Source: Escherichia coli (GTDB taxonomy: Bacteria > Pseudomonadota > Gammaproteobacteria > Enterobacterales > Enterobacteriaceae). From it: a stretch of DNA of 64,000 nt. Position numbers and translations under genes: made by a program. The stretch lies in assembly GCF_030384885.1 (NCBI RefSeq), contig NZ_CP128613.1. One strand, 5' to 3'. The notes beneath the pieces are model-generated. The model saw only the letters and a list, made by a program, of their open reading frames with translations. It made no database searches and was not told the DNA's origin. The stretch's first letter is position 1. Each line of letters starts with the position of its first letter. This document shows, piece by piece, positions 26,783 through 27,261 of the stretch.

Positions 26783-26917
26783 ATGTAATTTATCAATAAG
26801 AGGTGTCATTTCATCATTATTTATAATGAGTTGTAAACGGTTATTTTATTAGTGTTGGTAGTGATCTACAATAAGTATATTTTAAAGTGGGGGCGGAATT
26901 TTTAATAAAGAATTCAT

Positions 26918-27155
26918 ATGAGAAATAAAAATATAATTATGTTACTTATTGGCAGCTTGAGTTTGACAGGGGCGGGCAGGAGTATGAGGATAAAAATGTC
27001 AGCGAAAACAACCCACTACATCAACGGTTCAGAAAACATGTGCCGCTATACGCTGGAAATCTCCGCAGGCAAAAGATGAAGATTTACAGGGTTACAGTGC
27101 GGAATTTTTTCGTCTGATTGAACTGGCAGATGGCGTGACTGACATCAGTCAGTGA
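26918..27155 (+). pseudogene. Possible deletion remnant of yfbK (N-terminal signal-peptide fragment plus an out-of-frame C-terminal tail)
   Basis: Short ORF MRNKNIIMLLIGSLSLTGAGRS... stops after 56 codons; a different frame then ends ...LQGYSAEFFRLIELADGVTDISQ*; hairpin CGGACAG...CTGTCCG follows at 27178-27208; the region sits where yfbK would be expected. Confidence 0.3.
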
Positions 27156-27261
27156 TGACTTTTTAGCAAATAATTCCCGGACAGCCAGCTTATTTTCTGA
27201 CTGTCCGAATTGGTTAACAATTTGTTCCTGATACTCAATTTTTTGTTGATGAGTGTTCTTT

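Follow-up and report, generated by a model that had tools for sequence, protein, structure and literature searches.

The gap between yfbL and elaD in the Escherichia coli window examined here (the window being the whole 64,000-nt stretch of DNA that was analysed) holds both ends of yfbK and little in between. Taken as a whole, positions 26918–27155 are best explained, with a probability of about 0.92, as a non-functional, decaying yfbK pseudogene remnant of old and shared origin. This is ordinary gene loss, not a peculiarity of this strain.

Anatomy of the yfbK remnant

The window is 100% identical to strain 2013C-4282 (NZ_CP027579.1), a strain assigned to Escherichia cryptic clade I by a 2023 study (PMC10100065). 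Around the gap, the genes run in the order nuoN, two variable genes, yfbM, yfbL (− strand), the gap, elaD (− strand), rbn, elaA, elaB and menF. On the left of the gap, yfbL is an intact M28 metallopeptidase gene on the − strand (25808–26782 according to PGAP, or to 26809 in the longest ORF; ORF list, RefSeq and Pfam Peptidase_M28 at 2e-26), and it aligns full-length to other alleles. On the right, elaD (27262–28431, − strand; ORF list, RefSeq and Pfam) is an intact deubiquitinase gene encoding 389 aa. An earlier sequence-only reading of this DNA had put about 450 bp between the two genes, and the gap is real, measuring 452 nt from the longest yfbL ORF and 479 nt from the PGAP start. The slot that this reading gave for yfbK in the K-12 order was also correct, as K-12 (MC4100) carries a 1728-nt yfbK on the + strand exactly between yfbL and elaD.

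We built a multiple alignment of the window, six other scars and four intact alleles, those of K-12, a B2 strain, E. albertii and Escherichia sp. MOD1-EC7003. The fragments in the gap match the two ends of yfbK well beyond chance, in the right order and orientation. The 5' remnant (26918–27047, 130 nt, + strand), identified by blastn, tblastn and alignment, corresponds to yfbK nt 1–132, namely codons 1–44 with the signal peptide and a Q-rich linker. It is 77% identical to K-12 yfbK over 104 nt in blastn (nt 1–104, E=9e-15), and tblastn with the N-terminal 20 aa aligned MRNKNIIMLLIGSLSLTGAG against MRNKNIIMLLMSSLILSGCG (E=7e-4). The 3' remnant (27069–27155, 87 nt, + strand) corresponds to nt 1642–1728, comprising codons 548–575 and a TGA stop codon at 27153–27155, and is 89% identical to K-12 yfbK over 95 nt in blastn (nt 1634–1728, E=4e-31); the C-terminal 35 aa gave E=4e-9 in tblastn. 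The protein-like tail that had been noticed in the letters, LQGYSAEFFRLIELADGVTDISQ followed by a stop, is present in frame +3 with its end at 27155, and PGAP annotates 27063–27155 as an incomplete pseudogene of a hypothetical protein. Neither tblastn nor blastn found a second yfbK copy, intact or otherwise, elsewhere in the 64-kb window.

The sequence-only reading had envisaged a single internal deletion that left the ends of the gene. The ends remain as proposed, but the middle was removed at two joints, of 1323 nt and 165 nt, which flank a 21-nt island. Joint 1 (27047/27048, + strand) connects A44 to I486, with nt 133–1455 lost (1323 nt, 441 codons, in-frame), and its microhomology is at most 1 nt. 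The island (27048–27068, + strand) corresponds to yfbK nt 1456–1476 and encodes IRWKSPQ, as seen in the alignment and in a blastn match of 86% over 29 nt (nt 1456–1484). Joint 2 of the window allele (27068/27069, + strand) connects Q492 to A548, with nt 1477–1641 lost (165 nt, 55 codons, in-frame), and sits at a short repeat, GCAGG(N)AAAAG, that appears as CGCAGGGAAAAG on one side and AGCAGGCAAAAG on the other.

A frame switch between the two fragments had been read as part of the deletion pattern. The switch exists, but both joints are in-frame and it is caused by two 1-nt deletions in the 5' fragment. One of these destroys the lipobox Cys codon (26972–26974 is GCG, changing LTGC to LTGA), and the second lies near 26993. 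A lipobox with its invariant Cys, present as LSGC or LTGC in the intact alleles, is therefore absent from the window, while the ATG start codon is retained. The signal-peptide-like ORF described earlier was found on the + strand at 26918–27079, beginning with MRNKNIIMLLIGSLSLTG; its length is 53 codons and a stop rather than 56 codons, and it represents the frameshifted 5' remnant read across the joints. Intact YfbK contains the Pfam domains vWF_A (aa 102–199), VWA (aa 216–383) and YfbK_C (aa 393–568). The window has no continuous ORF with these three domains, as 1488 of the 1728 nt are missing and two frameshifts interrupt the rest, and a Pfam search of both remnant peptides matched no family.

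Distribution of the scar among E. coli genomes

The short yfbL-scar-elaD arrangement was found in 2571 of 5426 complete E. coli genomes (~47%), among them O157:H7, W and a B derivative, and the yfbK core was present in 2538 genomes of the same set. Both states span diverse strains, as seen for K-12 versus B and for O111:H8 versus W. Joint 1, in which GTGCCGC(T/G) is followed directly by ATACGCTGGAAAT, is identical in the window and in O157:H7, W, MEI003, ST2747, PKF11 and RMDEC465, and the 21-nt island is also found in the six other scar alleles. In those six alleles, joint 2 connects Q492 to I564, with 213 nt (71 codons) missing; of the complete genomes with a scar, all others lack 48 nt that the window keeps (27069–27116). 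An allele with joint 1 alone was sought among the 5426 genomes, and none was found.

In clade I, EC42405 has an intact yfbK. RMDEC465, whose clade assignment is assumed, has the common scar and is among the closest matches to the window over rbn–menF (98.9%). Divergence of the window scar from the common scars is ~18–20% (JC ~0.2), and synonymous divergence (dS) in the flanking yfbL, elaD and rbn genes is 0.08–0.19. Judged from these distances, the divergence of the scar would fit neutral decay that began roughly when clade I and E. coli separated, or before that. The small 5' lesions of the common scars also differ, including ATG to ATA and, within an A-rich run (codons 3–5), indels of 1 to 4 nt, and such varied lesions among scar alleles are expected of unconstrained sequence.

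The neighbouring yfbL gene varies as well. In the O157:H7 and W scar haplotypes (L003 and L006), yfbL shares a 326-nt internal deletion (corresponding to window positions 26195–26521) and is annotated by PGAP as frameshifted, and in a spread sample of scar haplotypes yfbL is mostly labelled ‘hypothetical’ or ‘zinc-binding metallopeptidase family’. These observations suggest that yfbL often decays after loss of yfbK. Note that yfbL of the window is intact, without the 326-nt deletion.

Among the papers listed for yfbK, no title or abstract dealt with the presence/absence polymorphism, and a 2025 paper on ElaD distribution makes no mention of yfbK or yfbL.

Divergence step at joint 1

A hyperdivergent left block (26717–27047) includes the first ~22 yfbL codons, the intergenic region between the divergent genes and the 5' fragment of yfbK, and its right end coincides exactly with joint 1. 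Within this block, identity to K-12 falls from ~95% to 61–77%, and the upstream intergenic region of the scar alleles is 61–69% identical to that of K-12. All scar alleles are at a JC distance of 0.22–0.27 from K-12 on the left of joint 1, whereas on its right the common scars are at 0.03–0.07 and the window is at 0.12; Fisher p values for this step were 0.0005–0.03. Across the 5426 genomes, left-block identity to a scar allele is bimodal (at least 86% or at most 74%) and fully linked to the absence of yfbK, and a search of these genomes for an intact yfbK with a scar-type left block found none. The first 75 nt of yfbL in the scar haplotype are 91% identical to a third Escherichia lineage (L011, described below) and 73% identical to K-12; the remaining part of yfbL is 98% identical to K-12 and 76% identical to L011. 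Faster decay of the pseudogene was rejected as the sole cause of the divergence on the left, because the right fragment, which is equally unconstrained, has diverged by only 3–7%.

The step at joint 1 indicates that the origin of the scar involved more than a plain deletion in an ordinary haplotype, and two readings fit it: an old dimorphism of which the right side alone was homogenised later, or an import of the left block that created joint 1. In the latter case, joint 1 would be the product of homology-facilitated illegitimate recombination with divergent Escherichia DNA. The block from yfbL codon ~22 to yfbK nt 132 would be foreign, having entered through a homologous crossover in yfbL, and its other end would have been joined illegitimately to native yfbK nt 1456, with deletion of 1323 nt in the same event. 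Such an import, which is a variant of the pseudogene reading that concerns the origin only, would account for the contrast in JC distance between the two equally unconstrained sides of the common scars, for the low intergenic identity and the sharp edge of the block inside yfbL, for the scar-type left block never occurring with intact yfbK, for the resemblance of the first 75 nt of yfbL to a non-coli lineage, and for the near absence of microhomology at joint 1. However, no donor found exceeds 84–91% identity over short stretches, the segments are short (75–330 nt) and the estimates from them noisy, and the step is weaker in the window allele (0.27 vs 0.12). Moreover, an old balanced or neutral dimorphism with homogenisation of the right side gives an identical picture, and we consider an import unlikely on balance.

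A wider proposal can be made only tentatively. The scar could belong to a very old system of two haplotypes at the yfbL/yfbK divergent-promoter block, one that dates back to the separation of the Escherichia species, stands at ~50:50 in E. coli and occurs also in clade I. Such a system would have been created by import of a foreign left block joined illegitimately to native yfbK, or would be maintained by balancing selection for having or lacking the YfbK surface lipoprotein, and the window allele would be an intermediate that survived from a series of stepwise in-frame deletions. If the step at joint 1 does reflect import or balancing selection, selection on an uncharacterised envelope lipoprotein would be indicated.

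Coding potential and age of the remnant

All three joints (joint 1 and both versions of joint 2) are in-frame, which has a probability of ~1/27 by chance and could hint at past selection on a mini-protein. A functional small gene, in the form of a secreted or lipoprotein mini-peptide or of a small RNA kept for its usefulness, would also agree with the ATG and hydrophobic N-terminus retained in the window and with the 44-aa hypothetical protein that PGAP calls over the scar in some strains. Such a function is nevertheless very improbable, given that the lipobox Cys is lost, that two frameshifts part the N- and C-terminal pieces, and that other alleles lack the start codon or carry different indels, so that the equivalent ORF is broken in various ways. 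In addition, the 53-aa product stands alone in its 90%-identity cluster of the protein collection. An Rfam scan of 26500–27500 gave no match at E of 1 or below, and scanning for the sigma-70 consensus gave one weak site on the − strand and no promoter for the remnant on the + strand. The 53-codon ORF is a by-product of the frameshifted remnant, not a conserved gene.

The window-type joint 2 occurs, among the 5426 complete genomes, only in the window's own genome, and this restriction of the exact scar with its extra 48 nt is what a recent deletion private to the 2013C-4282 lineage, removing the middle of yfbK in one event, would predict. Such a private event is refuted by joint 1, as the A44-I486 junction is common, base for base, to the scar in ~47% of E. 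coli, and it is hardly credible on other grounds as well: there are two joints rather than one, and the remnant is ~20% diverged from the common scars and has frameshifts of its own. Furthermore, another assembly (GCA_018089345.1) matches the locus without a single difference for 6170 nt, a stretch that takes in the entire gap, and the linked ElaD variant, the exact 389-aa form of the window, was found in ~500 blocks of a public collection and ~515 contigs in public assemblies.

The left edge is common to both versions of joint 2, which may be nested in order or may have arisen independently.

State of the locus in other Escherichia

A YfbL-anchored scan of species-representative genomes yielded three Escherichia loci; E. 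fergusonii, E. marmotae, E. ruysiae and Salmonella were unscored. E. albertii and Escherichia sp. MOD1-EC7003 have the order yfbL-yfbK-rbn, with yfbK intact and elaD absent, and since both carry intact yfbK adjoining yfbL, the intact gene is the ancestral state. The opposite polarity, with an ancestral short state and an insertion of yfbK into K-12-type lineages, has nothing but the ~50:50 frequency in its favour and is practically untenable, because the scar contains pieces of both yfbK ends and an internal island, and yfbK is intact in this position in both E. albertii and MOD1-EC7003.

The third lineage (L011) comes from a record titled E. coli SCPM-O-B-8794, and its rbn and YfbL are 92% and 82% identical, respectively, to those of K-12. 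In this lineage, yfbK was lost through a different, out-of-frame joint (nt ~120–1587), and the gene has thus been lost at least twice in the genus Escherichia.

In a B2 strain, E. albertii, MOD1-EC7003 and SCPM-O-B-8794 (loci L007, L010, L011 and L012), elaD is absent and yfbK or its remnant adjoins rbn; the absence of elaD from B2 has been published (PMC12575377). YfbK ends in IELADGVTDISQ where elaD is present and in IGLAKDLDNSQN where it is not (window positions 27117–27155), and these two endings tied to elaD place the boundary of an elaD insertion inside the last ~11 yfbK codons. Close relatives of YfbL in the species-representative scan were restricted to Escherichia, although this pattern-based scan can miss relatives, and the distribution was patchy; the next-best matches (L013–L039) were 33–49% identical and came from Nitrospirae, Opitutales, Bacteroidota and Acinetobacter.

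From these states, we infer the following order of events for the pseudogene reading. The ancestral Escherichia order would have been yfbL-yfbK-rbn, to which E. coli would later have added elaD on the downstream side of yfbK. An illegitimate joint in one old haplotype presumably took yfbK nt 133–1455, comprising vWF_A, VWA and the start of YfbK_C, and a second joint at the short GCAGG..AAAAG repeat would have taken nt 1477–1641. Small lesions may have followed, namely the loss of the lipobox Cys codon and the two 1-nt deletions. The window allele would represent an apparent forerunner of the scar that about half of E. coli have, in which 48 nt more were lost. The remnant would now code for nothing useful, and the hairpin downstream of it would serve only the convergent elaD.

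Hairpin and 3' end of elaD

A hairpin downstream of the remnant (27176–27209) forms a 13-pair stem on the − strand and is a candidate elaD terminator. Its arms had been reported from the letters, and both were found, CGGACAG at 27178–27184 and CTGTCCG at 27201–27207; the end coordinate of 27208 given for them was one base too high. The hairpin had been regarded as the terminator of the dead gene. It does follow the remnant, but it is also downstream of elaD, which is intact and convergent, and its fold is more stable on the elaD strand, with −21.6 kcal/mol on the − strand and −19.7 kcal/mol on the + strand (81-nt folding window). Shuffled sequences folded as well in 2 of 200 cases for the + strand and in none of 200 for the − strand. 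A terminator scan flagged the hairpin as terminator-like on the − strand (stem z=−3.3, tail AATTATTTGC with a weak T-run). In K-12, the hairpin between the convergent yfbK and elaD genes consists of a 15-bp stem without mismatches and a loop of 4 nt, and folds at −34 and −32 kcal/mol on the two strands (81-nt folding window). On the basis of fold and position, the window hairpin is probably a weakened copy of this convergent terminator that still serves elaD.

Compared with other alleles, two stem pairs are changed on both sides, A-U to G-C and C-G to A-U. Such double changes could reflect selection on the elaD terminator or templated correction within the palindrome; they were matched by 24 of 500 shuffles, and the sequences compared were few. 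The DNA from the hairpin to the elaD stop codon is ~66–70% identical to other alleles, and at this 3' end of the gene (27262–27315) ElaD of the window (389 aa) stops 17 aa before the end of K-12 ElaD (403 aa).

Wider window and implications

Further left in the window lies a segment of ~1.5 kb between nuoN and yfbM (23677–25203) that both E. coli W and O157:H7 lack. This segment contains a 191-aa ORF (24478–25053, − strand) and a yfbN-like gene and belongs to the variable yfbN/O/P region. Over 20000–34000, the window is a mosaic with 86–100% identity to E. coli W per 250 nt (average ~95–97%), a pattern consistent with membership in cryptic clade I together with recombination.

The main consequence is for annotation: both the 53-codon ORF and the fragment that PGAP calls ‘hypothetical protein’ should carry the label of a yfbK pseudogene, and yfbK itself is better regarded as accessory in E. 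coli, where it is present or absent at ~50:50. The joint common to E. coli sensu stricto and cryptic clade I could be used as a lineage marker, and the locus provides a clean, small example of stepwise pseudogene erosion. The interest of the case is modest and lies in an old ~50:50 polymorphism, of which the window carries the rarer, less eroded allele.

Comparison with known forms of the locus

K-12 yfbK (b2270), which encodes a predicted lipoprotein of 575 aa with a vWA domain and an uncharacterised function, occupies the same slot in the same orientation as the window remnant, divergent from yfbL. The remnant is homologous to it, including the elaD-linked C-terminal ending IELADGVTDISQ before the stop, but lacks 1488 of its 1728 nt, all three Pfam domains and the lipobox Cys, and its frame is broken. 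Likewise, the convergent bidirectional intrinsic terminator of K-12 has the position and the homologous arms of the window hairpin; however, it has 15 perfect pairs, whereas the window has 7+3 pairs on the + strand, or 13 with G-U pairs on the − strand, and a loop of 8 nt.

A further known counterpart is the common scar of O157:H7, W, B and a total of ~2570 complete genomes, which has joint 1, the 21-nt island, the left-block type and the flanking genes in common with the window. It differs by a further 48 nt missing at joint 2 and by ~20% divergence, and it has a 4-nt deletion at the Cys codon where the window has a 1-nt deletion, with the start codon often gone. The deletion in SCPM-O-B-8794 (L011) resembles that of the window in that the same gene was lost and the signal-peptide end and the C-terminal end remain beside yfbL; its left breakpoint, in the linker rich in CAG/CAA, is only 13 nt away from that of E. 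coli. In contrast to the window, the L011 locus has one joint, an intact lipobox and no elaD, and its 3' end is the elaD-less version that terminates in SQN.
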